Virus record (IMG/VR): IMGVR_UViG_3300020399_000003
Coordinates: 1 to 64,000 of that record
Length of the DNA stretch: 64,000 nt
Source of the DNA: a virus
Lineage: Duplodnaviria > Caudoviricetes
Direction: 5' to 3' (one strand)
The notes under the pieces were generated by a model that ran no database searches, was not told the DNA's origin, and saw nothing but the letters and a program-made list of their open reading frames with translations. This document shows positions 2,176-14,909 of this stretch, piece after piece. The position numbers and the translations under genes were made by a program. The first letter of the stretch is position 1. Every line of letters begins with the position of its first letter.

Positions 2176-3918
2176 ATGACTACTAGTATTGATCAGTACA
2201 CTATAGAAACTACATGGTCTACAAGAATTACCGATGATATAGTTCTGGAAGCTATTCAAGGGGATGTACCTCAGGATATGGAAACTAATATCATGAATAC
2301 AATTACTCATTTAAATAATAATAAATGGGTAGATGACAAAGAGATTTATATTAAATTAATGTCTTTAATTCTTATAGATCATAACAGCCGACCTATTCAA
2401 GCTATTGCTACTCAGATAGGACATCTAGCAGGAATTAGCAATCCTACTGATGCTTTCGAATGGGGAATAGTACTTCTTAAAGATTGTAGAGATGTTAATC
2501 TTTATAATTTTCAAAAGAAGGATCATGAATGGAGGGTATACCCTAATTTCACATTAGATAGTAATACTAAGGACAAAATAGCTAAGCTACAGTTCTTACC
2601 TCCTATGAAGAAACAGCCTAAAGATTGGAGAGATAATTATAATGGTGGATGGCTTTGGGAGAATAAGCATTTAGTTCTTGGTAATAAGTTTACCAAGCAC
2701 GAGGAACCACTAGCTTATGATGTTATTAATAAGCTTCAAAGTATTCCTTGGGAAATAGATGCTGATACTTATCTATTTGAAAAGCAGACTAATACTGCTA
2801 TGGATAAGAAACAATTCTTAAGAGTTATAGATCAGTATTTAGGACAACATTTCTATTTTGTATGGAGATATGATTCCAGGGGTAGAAGTTATTCTTCTGG
2901 CTATGATCTTAATCTTCAGACTAATGAATATGGTAAAGCTTTATTATCTCTTCATAAGAAAGAGGTTATCACTCAATTACCAAATCTTTACATTGCTATA
3001 GCTAATCATGCTGGCAAAGATAAGCTTACATGGCAAGAACGTATTGATTGGGTTAGTACTCAAAATCCAGATACTATTGAGTGGGATGAACCTATTCTAG
3101 GTAAGAAAGCTATAAGAGCTCTTAAAGCTACTGCAGAAGGTAAACCTACTGGATATGTAATGTCAGTAGATGCTACAAGTTCTGGGATTCAAATCATGGC
3201 TGTGCTATCAGGAGATAAGCAAACAGCTAAGCTGGTTAATTGCATAGATCCTAATCAACGTCATGATCTATACAATGATGTAGCAGCTATGATGTCTTTA
3301 CAGCTAAAGAACCCAGTTCCTAGATCTATAGTAAAGCAATGCACAATGACGCATTACTATAATTCTAAGGCTACTCCCAGGGGCCTGCTATCTGAAGAAG
3401 AACTGGAAGTATTCTATCAGGTTATTGAAGGTCTACTACCGGGAGCAGAAGAAGTAATGGCTACCATTAATGGATGCTGGAATAATAATGCTGATGCGCA
3501 TTCATGGGTTATGCCTGATGGTCATAGAGTATATGTTCCTGTAGTAGAAGGTATTAATGGTGTATACTCAGATGAAGAATTCGGAGATATTCCTTTGAGG
3601 TGGTACCGTCAAACTAAATCTAATAATTATAGGTCTCTTTGCCCTAATGTTATTCATTCAATTGATGGCTATGTGGCTAGGGAAATGATTAGACGTTCTG
3701 AATTTCAACTAAGTCATATCCATGATTGTTTTGTATTTAACCCTAATCATTTACAGAAAGTATGTCAAACATACAGAGAGATTATGGCTGAATTAGCTAG
3801 CAGTGATATATTCGTTGATATCTTACGCCAAATTACGGGTAAATCGACTTTTACAATCACTAAAGCTAGTACAGATTTAGATAAGGATATTCTTCAAAGT
3901 AATTATATGTTATCTTGA
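2176..3918 (+). CDS. N4-like RNAPII (T7 superfamily), RNAP1+RNAP2 fused in one 580-aa chain
   Basis: YDSRGRSY (DxxGR), IANHAGKDK..W.ERIDW, motif A VDATSSG, motif B RSIVKQCTMTHYY, motif C SHIHDCF in one frame. Confidence 0.9.
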   Translation: MTTSIDQYTIETTWSTRITDDIVLEAIQGDVPQDMETNIMNTITHLNNNKWVDDKEIYIKLMSLILIDHNSRPIQAIATQIGHLAGISNPTDAFEWGIVLLKDCRDVNLYNFQKKDHEWRVYPNFTLDSNTKDKIAKLQFLPPMKKQPKDWRDNYNGGWLWENKHLVLGNKFTKHEEPLAYDVINKLQSIPWEIDADTYLFEKQTNTAMDKKQFLRVIDQYLGQHFYFVWRYDSRGRSYSSGYDLNLQTNEYGKALLSLHKKEVITQLPNLYIAIANHAGKDKLTWQERIDWVSTQNPDTIEWDEPILGKKAIRALKATAEGKPTGYVMSVDATSSGIQIMAVLSGDKQTAKLVNCIDPNQRHDLYNDVAAMMSLQLKNPVPRSIVKQCTMTHYYNSKATPRGLLSEEELEVFYQVIEGLLPGAEEVMATINGCWNNNADAHSWVMPDGHRVYVPVVEGINGVYSDEEFGDIPLRWYRQTKSNNYRSLCPNVIHSIDGYVAREMIRRSEFQLSHIHDCFVFNPNHLQKVCQTYREIMAELASSDIFVDILRQITGKSTFTITKASTDLDKDILQSNYMLS

Positions 3919-4925: not shown

Positions 4926-5951
4926 ATGTTTGAGGTTAACGCAGTTGAACTAGAACAAGCTCTTATTGAAGATCTAAAAGCAGGTCTTACTCCGATGGTA
5001 GCGTCCAGCCCAGGGATGGGTAAATCAGATATTATTCGTAGTATAGCTAAAACATTTAACCTTAAAGTAATTGATTTCAGAGTATCTCAGTGTGAGCCAG
5101 TAGATATGCAAGGTTATCCTGGCATAACTGATGGACGTATGACATTTCATATTCCTGAGTACTTCCCTATAGAGACAGACAGCATACCCGAAGGGTATGA
5201 TGGCTGGCTCCTATTTTTAGATGAATTTAATTCAGGTAATAAACAAACAGAAGCTGCAGCATATAAGCTTATTTTAGATCGAGAAGTATATAAACATAAA
5301 CTACATCCTAGATGTCTTATTGCCGCAGCGGGTAATTTAACTACTGATAGAGCTATTGTAAATACTCAAAGTACAGCAACTACATCCCGATTAACTCACT
5401 ATAGAATGCGAGTAGATCACAAAGTATGGATCGAGTGGGCTAATGCAAATGAGATTGATCATAGAATTATCTCACTTATTAAATTTAAGCCAGAGATTCT
5501 GCATAAATTTGATCCTCAAACTAATGAACTTACTTTCCCAAGTCCACGTACATGGGAATTCGCATCTAAAGTTATTAAGAATAAATCAGAAATAAATCAT
5601 ATTACTACTGTCAGGTTAGCTGGAACAGTAGGTGAAGGAGCAGCTGTAGAACTAGCTGCCTATTCTGAAATCTATCAGAATTTACCTACAATTGAGCAGA
5701 TACTTGCCAATCCTAAATCAGGATGGAAAGTACCTAAAGAACCTAGTGAATTATTCGCAGTCACAACAATGCTAGCCCACAACAGTACTAAAGATAATAT
5801 TGAAAAACTCATGATTGCTAACGGGCGGTTACCTACCGAGATGCAAGTAATCACGTTAAAAGATATTTATAAAAGAAATCCTAAATTAAAAAAACATCCA
5901 ATAATTAAAGAGTGGACTAGTAAGAACGCTCACATATTATTTGGTAATTAA
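4926..5951 (+). CDS. MoxR-like AAA+ ATPase (N4 gp24-like)
   Basis: Walker A SSPGMGKS, Walker B LFLDEF, AAGN, FPSPRTWE. Confidence 0.9.
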   Translation: MFEVNAVELEQALIEDLKAGLTPMVASSPGMGKSDIIRSIAKTFNLKVIDFRVSQCEPVDMQGYPGITDGRMTFHIPEYFPIETDSIPEGYDGWLLFLDEFNSGNKQTEAAAYKLILDREVYKHKLHPRCLIAAAGNLTTDRAIVNTQSTATTSRLTHYRMRVDHKVWIEWANANEIDHRIISLIKFKPEILHKFDPQTNELTFPSPRTWEFASKVIKNKSEINHITTVRLAGTVGEGAAVELAAYSEIYQNLPTIEQILANPKSGWKVPKEPSELFAVTTMLAHNSTKDNIEKLMIANGRLPTEMQVITLKDIYKRNPKLKKHPIIKEWTSKNAHILFGN

Positions 5952-5958
5952 CCATCCA

Positions 5959-6239
5959 GGCGGTTCGAGATGGAATGTCTCATCTTAAACTAGAATGGAA
6001 TTCAACCCAGCTCAATTCAATAGAGTGGGGTTAAATGAAACGCAATAACATATCTCAAGAGTAGTACCTGAGTACGGTTTAGTTCGATTTAACCAGATTG
6101 AATTCAATCCAGCACAGTAAGATACAATGGAACCAAATATCTCATCGCAATGATTAATAAACCTAGCAGCATATAATAAAATTAGGCTCGGTATTATTAA
6201 ATTTTATGAAATATGATTCAATAATTCAAAATTTAACAA
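5959..6239 (+). repeat. phased RRY-NN pentamer tracts upstream of RAMP gene (candidate guide ncRNAs)
   Basis: 5994-6048 11/11 units RRY; 6071-6140 14/14; 6160-6239 12/16; short remnant 5959-5988; shared 15-nt end motif at 5974, 6044, 6136. Confidence 0.9.
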
Positions 6240-6250
6240 GGAGATTTAAA

Positions 6251-6841
6251 ATGTATGTATCAGCAAAGTGTCATCTAAGAAGTAACAGTAAGTATAGTCA
6301 ATCACGCCCATATCAAGTAGAAAAGAAGCCTCGAGAAACACCGGGAGATTATGAAAAACGAACATGGAGAGAACGTCTCCATCTTAGTTATGAAAACCCT
6401 GAAAAAATTCAAATTCCAGGAATGCAATTTAAGAATTGTATAGCAGAATGTGCTAAGTACATGTCTAGACAAATTCCAGGTAAAGGTAAAACAACCTATA
6501 CCAAGCATTTCGAAGCAGGAATTATGCCTATGGGATCTATGGAACTAGATATCTACGCTAAAGATGTAATTGAAGAAGTAGTATTTGTTCCTTCAAGTGG
6601 AAAACGCGGAGATGGTAATCGTGTTTATAAATCTTTTCCAGTAATTAATAGCTGGGAAGGAGTAATAGAATTCTCAATATTTGATCATACGATTACAAAA
6701 GAAGTATTTATTGAACATCTAATTGAAGCCGGACAGTTTATCGGTATCGGTAGATGGCGACCTCGTAATAATGGAATGTACGGACGTTTTCTTGTTGAAA
6801 AAGTTGATTGGCAAGAAAATGAATCGGCAATCGCAGCATAG
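6251..6841 (+). CDS. solitary Cas7-like RAMP-fold protein
   Basis: AAGGAG before ATG 6251; N-terminal beta strand, IPGMQFKNCIAECAK helix, C-terminal G-rich loop AGQFIGIGRWRPRNNGMYGRFLV. Confidence 0.85.
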   Translation: MYVSAKCHLRSNSKYSQSRPYQVEKKPRETPGDYEKRTWRERLHLSYENPEKIQIPGMQFKNCIAECAKYMSRQIPGKGKTTYTKHFEAGIMPMGSMELDIYAKDVIEEVVFVPSSGKRGDGNRVYKSFPVINSWEGVIEFSIFDHTITKEVFIEHLIEAGQFIGIGRWRPRNNGMYGRFLVEKVDWQENESAIAA

Positions 6842-7132
6842 TTACATGAAATTTAGTCGAGTGCAATGAAATTTAATAAAATATAACGAAACATCTTGTC
6901 GCAATTATTACCCCCTAAAAAATTTAACTTTGGTCGAGTTCGATAAAATTCCATGCAATTTAATTGAATCGAGTATCATATAATATAATTCAACGCAATG
7001 AAATATCACATCTCAAGGATTAAAATATAGAGCACCCAGCAGGACCCAGCATAGTAAGATGTCTTGAAACGGCCTGAAATAGGTCATAATGTAATAGGTC
7101 ATCATGCAACCTAATGCAACCCCATGTAATCA
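6835..7132 (+). repeat. phased RRY-NN pentamer tracts between RAMP and partner gene
   Basis: 6835-6894 11/12; 6932-7006 13/15; 7038-7132 13/19; end motif at 6890 and 7002. Confidence 0.9.
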
Positions 7133-7146
7133 CACAAGGATTTTAT

Positions 7147-7725
7147 ATGAGTCATCCAGGAAACGATAACATCATAGATAATGAAAGGGATAAAATGGAA
7201 ACTCCAGATAACGAACCAACAGTTGATGAGAAAAGAAAACCTTTTTGTCGAGCAATCGAAACTACAGGTTTAATAAAAGAATTAAAAAAATACCGGGAAG
7301 GTGAAGAAATTCCTTACGATGCTTTAACTAAAGCAGCAATGGGAAATTGTTCTCCAGGCAAAATTAAGTATCCTTTTCTTAAATCTGCCAGAGATATTTT
7401 ATTTAAAGAAGACGGAGTCGAATTCAGAGCCATTCCTAATATTGGATTAATGCGAATGTCTGATAAAGATAAACTCAGTAAAGCTAAAAGAACTATACCG
7501 TCTTACAATAGAAAAGCTAAAAAAGATATGCACAGATTGCAAAATACAGATTTTGATAATCTAAATCCTGATGAGCAATTATGTCATAGTGTTCATTTAT
7601 CAATTCTTAACGTTCTTAGATGTTCAACATCTGGAGATAGAGTTAATAAAATTACCAAAGTAATTGCGAATAATGACCAGCCTGAAAGACTTGCATTGGA
7701 AGAAACACTTAAAACATTTCTTTGA
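7147..7725 (+). CDS. RAMP-associated partner protein, unknown function
   Basis: AAGGA before ATG 7147 (alternative ATG 7195 after AAAGGGA); basic; flanked by pentamer tracts on both sides. Confidence 0.75.
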   Translation: MSHPGNDNIIDNERDKMETPDNEPTVDEKRKPFCRAIETTGLIKELKKYREGEEIPYDALTKAAMGNCSPGKIKYPFLKSARDILFKEDGVEFRAIPNIGLMRMSDKDKLSKAKRTIPSYNRKAKKDMHRLQNTDFDNLNPDEQLCHSVHLSILNVLRCSTSGDRVNKITKVIANNDQPERLALEETLKTFL

Positions 7726-7778
7726 TCCGACAGGACCCAATCCGTTGGAATTCGATGCAATAAGACAAGACTTAACAT
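7724..7778 (+). repeat. phased RRY-NN pentamer tract downstream of partner gene
   Basis: gatcc gacag gaccc aatcc gttgg aattc gatgc aataa gacaa gactt aacat: 10/11 RRY. Confidence 0.85.
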
Positions 7779-7788
7779 CGAGGTACTT

Positions 7789-8004
7789 ATGAAAACAGTT
7801 CCAATAGAAGAGTTAGGTATTAATGACGGTACATTTAATGCTCTTAAGAATGCAGGCATTACAACCGCTAATGAACTACACCAAATGAATGATAATAAAC
7901 TATTAGCTATTCATGAAATAGGACCTGTTAGGCGTAAGATTATTAAAAACGCTATAGCAACTATACGTGGAGACCTAATAGATCTACCACCTATTGACTG
8001 GTAA
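7789..8004 (+). CDS. stand-alone RNA polymerase alpha C-terminal-domain-like (HhH) protein
   Basis: IEELGINDGTFNALKNAGITTANELHQMNDNKLLAIHEIGPVRRKII matches the alphaCTD pattern ieeL.ls.R..NcLk.agI.t..dL...e.eLl.i.nlG.ks..eI. Confidence 0.8.
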   Translation: MKTVPIEELGINDGTFNALKNAGITTANELHQMNDNKLLAIHEIGPVRRKIIKNAIATIRGDLIDLPPIDW

Positions 8005-8009
8005 AACTA

Positions 8010-9134
8010 ATGTCTAATGACTTAGAAGGACAATTACTTAAAGCTAAGATAGAGATCATGACTAAGTCAGCATTCATATCTACTATAGCTCTTAGTCTTA
8101 AACATGTAATTACTCCTGATGTCAAAACAGCCGATGTTAATGGCGTAGTTATTAGATATAACCCCGAATTTATTGGAGCACAATCAACTGCTCAATTAGC
8201 TGGGCTTATGGCCCATGAATGTTGGCATGTAGCCTTCCAGCATTTATCACGTAGAAACGATAGAGATCCTATTCTTTGGAATGTAGCAGGAGATTACGTT
8301 ATTAATCATATGCTAATGAAAGCAGGATTCCAGATACCTACTGGAGGTCTAATCGATGCTCAATACGATGAAACATGGTCTACTGATCAAGTATATGACC
8401 ATTTAAAGAAAGACCATCATACCCCAAATCCTGAAACATTAATGTTAGATCTAAATGAAGATGGAGCACCAGAAGATGCAGGTATTGGTTCACCACTAAT
8501 AAGTATAATAGTAAGAGCCAAACAAGCAGCTGAAATGTCTGGTGAAGCAAAAAGGGGTCTTGTTCCAGATGAGATTCTAAGACGAATAGATGAGCTATTA
8601 AATCCTAAACTACCCTGGCAAGTTATATTGCATAAATTTCTAGATCGCAGAGTTAAAGAAGAATATTCTTGGGCTAGACGTAATAGACGATATCACGCAG
8701 ATACATATCTACCTAGTTTACATAGTTATGGGTTAGGTCACCTAACCTTTGCAATCGACACTAGTGGCAGTATTGAAGATAAAGCACTTCAAGAAATGCT
8801 TAGTGAAATACAAGGTGTTCAACAAATATTTACCCCAGAAAGAATGACAATCATTGATTGTGATGCAGTAATTCATAAAATTCATGATGTAGATCAATCT
8901 ACAAATATTTTAAATTTAGAATTTGCTGGAGGGGGAGGAACTAGCTTCTGGCCTGTTCTAGACTATGTAGAAGAACACCCCACACAAGCATTAATTTATT
9001 TTACTGATTTAGAGGGGGAGACTGATCTTGATCCAGTAAACTACCCAGTTATTTGGGTATGTACATCTAATCATGAACCCTCACCAATCGGAGAGACTGT
9101 TTATGTCAACCCAGAGCACTATAATTCTGATTAA
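8010..9134 (+). CDS. metallopeptidase-like + vWA domain protein (N4 gp25-like, DUF2201 type)
   Basis: HECWH (HExxH), NVAGDYVIN, IDTSGS MIDAS, GGGGT. Confidence 0.9.
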   Translation: MSNDLEGQLLKAKIEIMTKSAFISTIALSLKHVITPDVKTADVNGVVIRYNPEFIGAQSTAQLAGLMAHECWHVAFQHLSRRNDRDPILWNVAGDYVINHMLMKAGFQIPTGGLIDAQYDETWSTDQVYDHLKKDHHTPNPETLMLDLNEDGAPEDAGIGSPLISIIVRAKQAAEMSGEAKRGLVPDEILRRIDELLNPKLPWQVILHKFLDRRVKEEYSWARRNRRYHADTYLPSLHSYGLGHLTFAIDTSGSIEDKALQEMLSEIQGVQQIFTPERMTIIDCDAVIHKIHDVDQSTNILNLEFAGGGGTSFWPVLDYVEEHPTQALIYFTDLEGETDLDPVNYPVIWVCTSNHEPSPIGETVYVNPEHYNSD

Positions 9135-11517
9135 AGAAGATGCCTGTATCACAACAGAAATTCAAAACTATTATCTAAACAAACTTCGTAATGAAGGAAT
9201 CTCACCAGATGAAGTACTCGTACTACCTCTTCTGTATAACACCCCTACCAAAATTATAGCTAAAACAGCTAAAGCTTATCTCGACAAGTTAATTCATAAG
9301 ATCCCGACAAGTGTATCTAAATTAATTATTGCAGATAGCAGTTATTTTAAATTTATTACTAAAGTAAATAAAGTGTCTGATGCTTATTGTCAGATATTAC
9401 GTGGAAAATACACAGGATATGAAAAATACCAATGTGTATATGTTCCTAATTATAAATCTTTATTTAAACAACCAGAGAACAAAAGATTAATTGATCTCGG
9501 TATTGAAACACTAATGGGTGTTTATACTGGAGATGGTTTAAATATATCAGCTGAATATGGTTTTAAACACGGATCTGATAGAGAGATACTCGATTCATTA
9601 TATAAATATCCGGTCTTATCAGCAGACATAGAAACTAGAGGACTAGATCTAGATTCAGAAATAGTATCCATTGCGTTTGCATGGTCCACGTTTGATGGCG
9701 TAGCTATCGATTTATCTATTAATGGTGATTACTATTTAAAGAAATTCTTTGAATCGTACAAAGGCCAGTTAATATTTCATAATGGCTTATTTGATGCCAA
9801 GTTACTTATCAAAAGTCTATGGATGGAACATCCTACAGATAGAGCAGGTATGCTCGAAGGTCTTAATTATTTTAAGAACTTTGATGACACTATGATCATG
9901 GCTTATTTAGCTAAGAATGCCACTACCGGTACATCACTTGGTTTAAAAAATCTAGCTCTGGAATTTGCAGGGTATTACGCTCTTGAACATATTGAAGATT
10001 TAAGTAGATATAGTAAGAAAGAACTTCTTAAATATAATCTTATAGATGCATTATCAACTTTTTATTGTTGGGAACAATATCATGACCAATTAGATTCTCG
10101 TCCATATAAAGAAATATTTCAGCCTAGTTTCGTAACATTATTAAAAATGATGTTAGTAGGCTTACCAATGGATTCTAATCGTGTAGACGAAGTTCACACA
10201 ATTTTAAAATCTAAAGAAAAAGTTCTACTAGAACAAATACAAGAAAATAACCACGTAAAAAATTTCACTAAAATATTACAAGAAACAGCATGTACAACTG
10301 CTAATTCTAAACTTAAAAAATTAGTTAAAACAATAGAACAATTTTACGATGTTAAGTTCAATCCAAGTAGTCATCAACAGTTAGCTCTTTTATTATTTGG
10401 TCATTTACAATTACCTATTTTAGATAAAACTAAATCAGGAGCACCAGCTACTAGTGCAGATGTATTAAAAGATTTAGCTAACCATACACAAGACGTAGAA
10501 ATAATAGATCTACTTAAGTTTGTTACAGACTTAGCAGACGTTACGAAGATTAATGGAACATTTATTAAAGCTTTCCTAAAAGAGAAGAATTTCCTACATG
10601 GAAATTTGAAACTTGGTGGTACTCAATCTGGAAGGTTGGCAAGTAACTCACCTAACTTGACCAATCTTCCCGCTCATGGGCCTATGGGCAAACTAATCAA
10701 GAGCTGTATTGTAGCTCCTGATGGTTGGCTATTTGCAGGAGCAGACTTTGCTGCTCTTGAAGAACGTATTGGAGCAATACTAAGTAACGATCCTAATAGA
10801 ATTAAAGTATATACCGATGGTATGGATGGGCATTCAATGAGAGCTTACAAATACTTCTCAGATCAAATGCCAGATATCGATCCTAACGATGTAGATAGCA
10901 TTAATTCAATCCAAATTAAATATCCTGAGCTGAGACGGAAGTCTAAAGGTCCAACCTTCGCCCTACAATATATGGGCACAGCTCATACCTTACATAAGCG
11001 TACTGGCTTTCCTAAAGACCAAGCTAAACAAATCTATGATGCTTTTCATGAATTATATAAAGTTTCTGGTGATTTTAATAATCAGAATAGAAAATTTATG
11101 GAAGAGCATGGTTATGTTGAATGTGCATTTGGTCTTAAACTGCAAACACCAATTATAACTAAATGTATAATGGGTAATTCAATTACTCCTTATGAAGCAG
11201 ATAAAGAAGCGCGTAGTGCTAATAATGCTGTTACTCAATCTTGGGGCATGCTACTCAATAGAGCTATGAATGCCACTAATAAACGCATTGAAGAAGCAGG
11301 ATATGGAACAGATATTCTTCCCTGTAACATGATTCATGATGCAGGTTACTTTATTGTAAGAGATACACCTGAACATATTAAATTTTTAAATGATGTTCTT
11401 ATTGAAGAAATGGAATGGAATGATGATGATGCAATTAGATCAACTGATGTCCCAATGTGTGCTCAATTAGAAATTGGCAAATCATGGGATAAATTAACCC
11501 CAATTGGAGAAATATGA
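9103..11517 (+). CDS. family A DNA polymerase with 3'-5' exonuclease (N4-like)
   Basis: ExoI DIET, ExoII HNGLFD, ExoIII YNLIDA; pol motifs ADFAALEER, RRKSKGPTFALQY, IHDA; GGAGAG before ATG 9103. Confidence 0.95.
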   Translation: MSTQSTIILIKEDACITTEIQNYYLNKLRNEGISPDEVLVLPLLYNTPTKIIAKTAKAYLDKLIHKIPTSVSKLIIADSSYFKFITKVNKVSDAYCQILRGKYTGYEKYQCVYVPNYKSLFKQPENKRLIDLGIETLMGVYTGDGLNISAEYGFKHGSDREILDSLYKYPVLSADIETRGLDLDSEIVSIAFAWSTFDGVAIDLSINGDYYLKKFFESYKGQLIFHNGLFDAKLLIKSLWMEHPTDRAGMLEGLNYFKNFDDTMIMAYLAKNATTGTSLGLKNLALEFAGYYALEHIEDLSRYSKKELLKYNLIDALSTFYCWEQYHDQLDSRPYKEIFQPSFVTLLKMMLVGLPMDSNRVDEVHTILKSKEKVLLEQIQENNHVKNFTKILQETACTTANSKLKKLVKTIEQFYDVKFNPSSHQQLALLLFGHLQLPILDKTKSGAPATSADVLKDLANHTQDVEIIDLLKFVTDLADVTKINGTFIKAFLKEKNFLHGNLKLGGTQSGRLASNSPNLTNLPAHGPMGKLIKSCIVAPDGWLFAGADFAALEERIGAILSNDPNRIKVYTDGMDGHSMRAYKYFSDQMPDIDPNDVDSINSIQIKYPELRRKSKGPTFALQYMGTAHTLHKRTGFPKDQAKQIYDAFHELYKVSGDFNNQNRKFMEEHGYVECAFGLKLQTPIITKCIMGNSITPYEADKEARSANNAVTQSWGMLLNRAMNATNKRIEEAGYGTDILPCNMIHDAGYFIVRDTPEHIKFLNDVLIEEMEWNDDDAIRSTDVPMCAQLEIGKSWDKLTPIGEI

Positions 11518-14833: not shown

Positions 14834-14909
14834 GCCCTTGTAACTCAAATGGTAGAGTAACTGATGATTAAATCGGTAGTTGGTGGTTCAAATCCACCCA
14901 AGGGCCCCA
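14834..14909 (+). tRNA. tRNA(-like) gene with atypical 8-nt anticodon loop, C73, encoded CCA; isotype undetermined
   Basis: Acceptor GCCCTTG/CAAGGGC, D stem ACTC/GAGT, anticodon stem ACTGA/TCGGT with loop TGATTAAA, T arm GGTGG-TTCAAAT-CCACC. Confidence 0.8.

Follow-up and report, generated by a model that had tools for sequence, protein, structure and literature searches.

The gene at positions 7147–7725 of the 64,000-nucleotide (nt) stretch of viral DNA analysed here (positions 1–64,000 of IMG/VR record IMGVR_UViG_3300020399_000003, Duplodnaviria, Caudoviricetes; hereafter the window) is, with high confidence, a vap gene of the Vap1 family that belongs to a type II-like VIPR system in a marine N4-like phage. 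The explanation that best covers the evidence as a whole, with a probability of about 0.7, is that its product is a Vap1-family accessory of VIPR that acts as a cofactor of silencing. The gene is a distant, divergent addition to this recently described family and not a new kind of system. VIPR, an RNA-guided, CRISPR-like phage silencer first described in 2026, comprises a solitary RAMP protein (Vipr), an accessory gene (vap) and ~100-nt vrRNAs of 9–16 GGY-NN pentamers (R, purine; Y, pyrimidine; N, any nucleotide) plus a 3' tail; there is one Vipr protomer per pentamer, the NN positions read double-stranded DNA with a one-nucleotide skip (NN-x-NN-x), and competing mobile elements are thereby silenced at the level of transcription (bioRxiv 10.64898/2026.04.26.720920). 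Structural work on VIPR is reported in a separate paper (10.64898/2026.04.26.720927). The two genes of the locus in the window are:

7147–7725, plus strand: the target gene, very probably a Vap1-family vap; 192 amino acids (aa), from ATG 7147 to TGA 7723–7725.
6251–6841, plus strand: vipr; 196-aa RAMP of Cas7/Csm3 fold with the G-loop GIGRWRPRNNGMYGRF.

Judged from Vipr homology and the pentamer arrays, the locus is a VIPR system of type II-like kind. A first-pass annotation, made by a model from the letters of the DNA, had called the neighbour of the target gene a RAMP, and this identification was confirmed: the predicted structure of Vipr (predicted local distance difference test, pLDDT, 92.5) had as its best PDB matches only Csm3/Cas7 RAMPs of type III and type VII CRISPR effectors (Foldseek E 3e-8, template modelling (TM) score 0.5–0.6), the alignment of the Vipr family matched Vipr of the type II system of Escherichia phage SUSP1 with a probability of 96.9 in hhalign, and the same profile searched against the whole PDB returned a single match, entry 36pp, 'SUSP1 Vipr protein' (E 8.8e-9). 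The true start of vipr is ATG 6251 and not 6206, and the family comprises more than 2,100 clusters at 90% identity. Like VIPR systems generally, the locus is a minimal two-gene unit with a G-loop RAMP, pentamer arrays of ~10–15 units with a tail, a phage as carrier and no cas genes.

Seven tracts of pentamers surround the two genes, all on the plus strand:

5994–6072, plus strand: tract T1; 11 RRY-NN units (5994–6048), then the hairpin-capable tail CATATCTCAAGAGTAGTACCTGAG.
6071–6157, plus strand: tract T2; 14 units (6071–6140), then the tail CTCATCGCAATGATTA.
6160–6250, plus strand: tract T3; 13 partly degenerate units (6160–6224), running into AACAAGGAG, which holds the ribosome-binding site (RBS), and the vipr ATG.
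6835–6920, plus strand: tract T4 (tract C of the first-pass annotation); 12 units (6835–6894), then the tail CTTGTCGCAATTATTACCCCC.
6932–7030, plus strand: tract T5; 15 units (6932–7006), then the tail CACATCTCAAGGATTA.
7083–7140, plus strand: tract E; 10 units, four of them imperfect (7083–7132).
7724–7788, plus strand: tract F; 11 units (7724–7778), from the G of the vap TGA into GAGG (RBS) and the ATG of the next gene.

The tight packing that had been described earlier, with one tract over the RAMP stop codon, one just ahead of the RBS of the target and one starting inside its TGA, was borne out: T4 starts inside the last vipr codons and overlaps the vipr TAG (6839–6841), tract E stops 3 nt 5' of CACAAGGA, which carries the RBS of the target gene, and tract F begins within the stop codon of the target. 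In all three intergenic stretches, sequence identity at lags of 5, 10 and 15 nt was 0.36–0.44, compared with ~0.25 at other lags, and the lag-5 signal was absent from the coding sequences of vipr and vap. Tracts of at least 10 RRY-NN units were confined to the VIPR locus and to the plus strand within the 64-kb window. Over 86 units, position 1 was A in 69% and G in 22%, position 2 A in 76% and G in 21%, and position 3 T in 74% and C in 26%, with positions 4–5 near uniform. As far as sequence goes, the arrays are thus built like VIPR arrays (a fixed triplet, a hypervariable NN and a tail), as a variant in which the R-R-Y triplet is mostly AAT and not GGY. The published consensus is GGY/NN (variants NNNGG, YNNNG and NNNNG), whereas in the window A has largely taken the place of G at the two purine positions. 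In SUSP1 Vipr, D177 has been published as the residue reading the first G, G1 (10.64898/2026.04.26.720927). This residue aligns with an arginine that is nearly invariant in the present Vipr clade (G-loop residues 165–180), in AAT-type and GGC-type members alike, so the choice between A and G in the fixed triplet must be made elsewhere; mapping the published G1- and G2-contacting residues onto this Vipr left the A-for-G switch unexplained.

A tail of the type AAYAT-C-(A/T)CATC(T/G)CAA is common to four of the seven tracts, and the last unit (AAYAT) of each tract is probably part of the tail. In this Vipr clade, tracts end in a CAAGG-type motif that resembles a Shine–Dalgarno sequence; it was found in 66 of 257 crude tail windows, compared with 0 for its reverse complement, and occurs in the window, in three related loci (L004, L009 and L011) and in further Vipr loci. 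The motif is the actual RBS ahead of vipr, vap and the next gene, and the leader of the vap mRNA is itself tract E, the CAAGGA end of which serves as RBS. A population variant from a marine sequencing run (X5) carries deletions of 3+1+1, 5 and 5 nt in the units of T3 (6160–6224); these sum to whole pentamers, so that the 5-nt register is kept. The array 5' of vipr spans 300 bp in the window and 740 bp in the close relative L006. In the GC-rich ERF/YqaJ phage L009, a further pentamer tract, which also has the AACGCAAGGCAAGG tail, is located at 3282–3354, ~1.6 kb 5' of vipr and between unrelated genes, and could be a dispersed or solo vrRNA. A search of positions 5800–7900 against Rfam gave no match. 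A replication origin composed of iterons and an initiator, first suggested by the place of the module among replication genes, was dropped, since the RAMP fold and the VIPR papers account for the 5-nt period.

The target open reading frame (ORF) is a real, conserved gene by its sequence: 35 metagenomic homologues share 46–97% identity with its product, and the alignment has ~55 invariant columns, mostly in residues 33–104 and at the C-terminus. An AAGGA Shine–Dalgarno sequence lies at 7136–7140, 6 nt 5' of ATG 7147; a longer listed ORF, from 7114, begins within tract E and lacks an RBS. In most relatives the start corresponds to M17 (ATG 7195, which would give 176 aa), and the 16-aa N-terminal extension is kept in the nearest clades, making the start at 7147 plausible here. 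The protein had been described as basic and ~180–190 aa long; the length agrees with the 192-aa ORF, but the protein is only mildly basic, with an isoelectric point of 8.6 (34 K+R versus 31 D+E). It matched nothing in Pfam (E up to 0.01), PHROGs or NCBIfam, nuclease families included, in agreement with the earlier remark that no nuclease motif is visible; 27 family members searched against Pfam (E up to 0.1) gave no usable match either. A single metatranscriptome contig was found over the vap gene region, a seawater contig of 330 nt (run X20) that covers 7136–7419 and there includes the RBS and the initial 270 nt of a target variant, which is ~93% alike and lacks 12 nt, in frame, at 7204. It is a weak hint of vap transcription, DNA carry-over being possible. 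DNA contigs of two runs leave 7052–7179 uncovered, and RNA contigs span only parts of vipr and vap.

Membership in the Vap1 family was derived from 80 IMG/VR loci seeded on Vipr alone, over all ORFs of which a profile was iterated. In 85 of 94 sources the iterated profile settled on a single ORF, and SUSP1 Vap1 was one of these. As a check for circularity, the profile was rebuilt from 62 non-redundant members with SUSP1 excluded and searched against the 107 ORFs in the first 50 kb of SUSP1; Vap1 (NC_028808.2 28031–28471, minus strand) was the sole match (E 1.1e-8, 27.5 bits), with an alignment spanning the recognition helix, the wing and the hairpin helices. Together, the modest profile score and the expectation from gene position support distant homology of the target to SUSP1 Vap1. 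The narrow profile of the target family (A2) also matched the partner ORF of a GC-rich ERF/YqaJ-type phage (hhalign probability 96.6). When the family profile was run against 1.84 billion cluster representatives, 5,708 proteins, each representing a cluster at 50% identity, were recovered at E up to 1e-3 and 3,777 at E up to 1e-10; the best 150 of the 5,708 were all 156–228 aa long, mostly 160–180, and matched the profile nearly end to end.

The vap gene nearly always adjoins vipr and moves together with it. A Vap1-family ORF was present on the same strand in 71 of the 80 Vipr-seeded loci (66 downstream, five upstream), or in 71 of 77 when three loci cut at a contig edge are set aside; of the nine loci without vap, three are cut off at a contig edge, in three the contig opens with Vipr, and three genuinely have no vap. 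The reverse test rests on three look-ups with enough flanking DNA, and in all three of these Vap-seeded representatives (P0215, P0262 and P0305) Vipr was adjacent. GC-rich phages with ERF/YqaJ/SSB modules carry the same trio, with arrays of GGC-type pentamers. The cassette (arrays, vipr, arrays, vap) occupies one of two sites: between the ATPase and the vWA gene in the window and in L006–8, L016, L017 and L020, and between a primase-like gene and AAA_24 in L001/2, L004/5/18, L019, L021 and L024. The core genes flanking the two sites are 75–86% identical between related N4-like phages. Examples of the cassette are:

5952–7788 of the window.
2596–4731 of L004.
8202–10642 of L006.

The first-pass annotation had proposed that genes and tracts form one unit, and had named homologues occurring independently of the RAMP gene as the observation that would speak against it; the two-way co-occurrence and the two alternative cassette sites support the proposal. 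Vipr and Vap identities correlate (Mantel r 0.55, a value that 0 of 999 permutations reached). With median pairwise identities of 23% for Vap and 61% for Vipr, Vap evolves, by sequence comparison, far faster than Vipr.

The AlphaFold model of the target protein had an overall pLDDT of 68.7 and a predicted TM score of 0.47, with a pLDDT of 87–91 over residues 41–60 and 81–110. The following parts are predicted by the model:

Residues 1–31: disordered N-terminus.
Residues 36–46, 57–64 and 75–89: helices, the last of which holds the conserved LKSARDILFK.
Residues 93–96 and 100–103: beta hairpin with the invariant PNxGLxRM.
Residues 106–158: long helical hairpin (domain ~106–160).
Residues 160–169: flexible linker.
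Beyond residue 169 to the C-terminus: two short helices; the conserved C-terminal helix 179–191 ends in LALEETLKTF.

Residues ~33–105 probably form a winged helix, with LKSARDIL as the recognition helix and PNxGLxR as the wing. The middle of the protein had been guessed to be helix-helix-wing from its letters; the AlphaFold/Foldseek check, run with moderate confidence, agrees, placing helices at 57–64 and 75–89 and strands at 93–96 and 100–103 in the segment concerned. The helical hairpin that follows appears suited to dimerisation, and the conserved C-terminal helix, with the motif LxLxxTLxxF, is predicted to be amphipathic. The model contains only a winged helix and further helices and suggests a protein without a catalytic motif; in contrast to VIPR types III–V, which have HNH-like nuclease accessories, no nuclease or helicase domain was found in the target by Pfam, PHROG or NCBIfam searches. 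The best Foldseek matches in the PDB were DNA-binding domains of the OmpR/PhoB type (E 0.08, probability 0.99, TM ~0.5 on the target). In VIA alignments, residues 28–112 matched the winged helices of NSE1, PurR, ArlR, AdeR and CadC with Z 6.4–7.2, and residues 105–166 matched helical hairpins, e.g., histidine-kinase DHp domains and the AphA C-terminal domain. Residues ~28–112 superpose on the winged-helix domains of SaeR (4u88), ArlR (6is4), PurR (1o57, N-terminal) and NSE1 (5wy5) with the same order of helix, helix, recognition helix and wing, but there was no match at the level of sequence families, the Foldseek E values being 0.08 or worse and the VIA Z scores 7.2 or lower. Neither the target (E up to 0.01) nor the 27 family members (E up to 0.1) matched the OmpR/PhoB family in sequence (Pfam Trans_reg_C), so the resemblance to this family is one of fold only. 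Moreover, the target has no receiver or effector domain, and its C-terminal helical hairpin is foreign to OmpR/PhoB-type families. A PDB sequence search with the Vap family profile returned chance-level rows only and no solved structure. A BFVD match (E 3.9e-4) to a 146-aa protein of Escherichia phage adrianh is a possible Vap1 orthologue. Type II vaps are predicted to be winged-helix-like DNA binders (10.64898/2026.04.26.720920, fig. S21 legend).

The target and SUSP1 Vap1 have in common that each is a small stand-alone protein encoded next to vipr, on the same strand and within vrRNA arrays, is predicted to be winged-helix-like and has no nuclease domain. They differ in sequence (~16% identity in the alignment) and in gene order, vap1 abutting vipr in SUSP1 whereas two and a half vrRNA tracts lie between vipr and vap in the window. 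The carriers differ as well (a marine N4-like podovirus versus a Felix-O1-like myovirus), as does the fixed triplet (AAT/RRY versus GGY).

Several results weigh against the assignment to an active VIPR system with a Vap1-family accessory. At 27.5 bits, the match to SUSP1 Vap1 is weak by absolute standards and leans on the small search space and on gene position, and hhalign of the narrow A2 profile against SUSP1 Vap1 gave a probability of 0.2, i.e., no similarity, a result later overturned by the broader profile. SUSP1 Vap1 has 146 aa, compared with 192 in the target, and lacks both the C-terminal LxLxxTLxxF helix and the recognition helix with the SAR motif. Three loci (L055, L059 and L079) have Vipr with room on both sides and no recognisable vap. 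The structural model of the target is moderate only, and every structural match lies under the noise guide of the tool (Z under 8); with scores below this caution line, the fold assignment is probable, not certain. Lastly, when the seven tracts were decoded by the NN-x-NN rule, no self-target emerged, and in 0.8 Mb of related loci no match exceeded shuffled controls. Exact 10-unit patterns of tracts E and F had 0 matches in IMG/VR viral contigs; these patterns may be too strict, the last unit (AAYAT) probably being tail. Eight-unit seeds of T2 and T5 had 12 and 20 matches in IMG/VR, extension of which did not go beyond chance (best 22/28 and 22/30). As no natural guide target was found, silencing by the AAT-type system is something that we infer.

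As regards what Vap does, the published work on SUSP1 provides three observations. Deletion of vap1 reduces plaquing of SUSP1 on a satellite lysogen by ~10^4, the same as deletion of vipr (10.64898/2026.10.15.759431); co-expressed vap1 strengthens VIPR defence against lambda (10.64898/2026.04.26.720920); and vrRNA1 and vipr alone are sufficient for Vipr-vrRNA filaments to form, targets to be bound and GFP to be repressed (10.64898/2026.04.26.720920, 10.64898/2026.04.26.720927). Taken together, the deletion phenotype, the gain in defence and the Vap-free assembly favour reading Vap as a cofactor. According to the published work, Vipr polymerises along the vrRNA with one protomer to each pentamer and silences DNA matching NN-x-NN-x. 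In the mechanism that we propose, Vap would be a dimeric, non-catalytic cofactor that binds nucleic acid at or next to the Vipr-vrRNA-DNA complex and makes silencing effective at natural expression levels. The conserved helix at the extreme C-terminus of Vap would be a candidate docking peptide for the highly conserved Vipr. That Vap acts in precisely this manner, as a dimeric non-catalytic cofactor at the Vipr filament, is held tentatively, at somewhat less than even odds, the structural side of it resting on a predicted model. The large and small subunits of class 1 CRISPR effectors, Cas8 and Cas11, offer an analogy only: they are non-RAMP partners of a Cas7-type filament, and Vap, like them, could contact target DNA, but no sequence or fold similarity to either was found and VIPR binds in vitro without such a subunit. 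The earlier preference for repression over cutting agrees with the published transcriptional silencing by type II VIPR (10.64898/2026.04.26.720920).

The main rival, which we regard as rather doubtful, is that Vap serves its own locus as a sequence-specific transcription factor, activating or autoregulating the vrRNA and vipr promoters and having no part in target silencing. A winged helix followed by a helical dimerisation hairpin is the usual build of bacterial and phage regulators, and the low median identity of Vap (23%, against 61% for Vipr) would be expected of a regulator co-evolving with lineage-specific operators. An expression role would also fit the observation that vap1 is needed in the native phage and not when plasmid promoters drive Vipr and vrRNA (10.64898/2026.04.26.720920, 10.64898/2026.10.15.759431). 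However, the SAR recognition helix is among the best-conserved parts of the family, in AT-rich and GC-rich phages alike, which argues against lineage-specific operators. Furthermore, no conserved palindromic operator was seen in the locus, a scan of the locus for sigma-70 promoters and terminators remained at shuffle level, and the early and middle genes of N4-like phages are read by the phages' own RNA polymerases.

Less probable, and in our view unlikely, is that Vap binds the conserved 3' tail of the vrRNA, or its DNA, and serves vrRNA maturation, capping or filament nucleation, as the 'loading factor' suggested by the first-pass annotation would. In favour of such a role, the CAAGG-type motif that ends tracts in this clade is strand-specific, the vap mRNA leader is a tract whose end is the RBS, and the SAR recognition helix is common to the CAAGG-tail clade, while SUSP1 has a pseudoknot tail and a Vap1 without SAR. 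This correlation between tail and helix comes from two clades only, and SUSP1 Vipr-vrRNA assembles and binds its targets without Vap1, so that Vap is not required for processing or loading, at least in SUSP1; a loading factor is neither shown nor needed. That the target is an unrelated phage regulator merely neighbouring vipr is close to refuted: neighbouring genes are not always functionally linked and no model of Pfam, PHROGs or NCBIfam annotates the family, but the co-occurrence is two-way across very different phages, the cassette relocates jointly and the target has a homologue in SUSP1 on which VIPR function depends genetically (10.64898/2026.10.15.759431).

The vap gene may be under control of its own system. 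A tract leader with a CAAGG tail acting as Shine–Dalgarno sequence precedes vap, and the same arrangement precedes vipr (T3) and the next gene (F), so that coupling of translation to guide loading is possible. In such a feedback loop, which we consider improbable, Vipr polymerising on the leader, or the SAR helix binding the CAAGG tail, would couple translation of Vap and Vipr to guide loading.

The gene content of the window is that of a marine N4-like phage, and DNA nearly identical to it was found in seawater metagenomes from at least 10 studies. The region (blastn) and the target and Vipr (both tblastn) were compared with 50,697 phage records, with no match in any case. The VIPR cassette is flanked by an AAA ATPase gene (4926–5951) and a DUF2201 metallopeptidase/vWA gene (8010–9134). 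Other features of the window are:

2176–3918: T7/N4-type RNA polymerase gene; a single 580-aa ORF matched by the PHROG 2051 and 2166 models of N4-type RNA polymerase II.
9073–11517: family A DNA polymerase.
Minus strand: ORF of 4,506 aa, the size of a virion RNA polymerase.
7789–8004: 71-aa protein of the RNA polymerase alpha C-terminal domain type (Pfam RNA_pol_A_CTD, E 1e-7), directly after tract F.

RNA polymerase II of N4 is encoded by two genes, compared with the single ORF at 2176–3918 in the window. The RNA_pol_A_CTD-like gene is restricted to the window and the L006–8 lineage; L016, L017 and L020 pass directly from vap to the vWA gene. ARAGORN reported a tRNA-like gene of undetermined identity, with a 4-base anticodon (atta), at 14834–14909.

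VIPR has been proposed to predate CRISPR, and Vap1 is genetically required in natural infection. Counting 5,708 clusters at 50% identity, the Vap1 family goes far beyond its characterised examples in size and diversity, and it now very probably extends to marine N4-like phages with AAT instead of GGY guides. The alignments and the model point to a common Vap architecture of winged helix, helical hairpin and C-terminal motif, and the SAR helix, the wing, the C-terminal helix and the CAAGG tail offer handles on the role of Vap. An A-rich natural variant of the VIPR code is now available for comparison. If the feedback loop were true, then, given its ~three times faster evolution, Vap would be a regulated, arms-race-exposed component of VIPR and not a passive DNA clamp.

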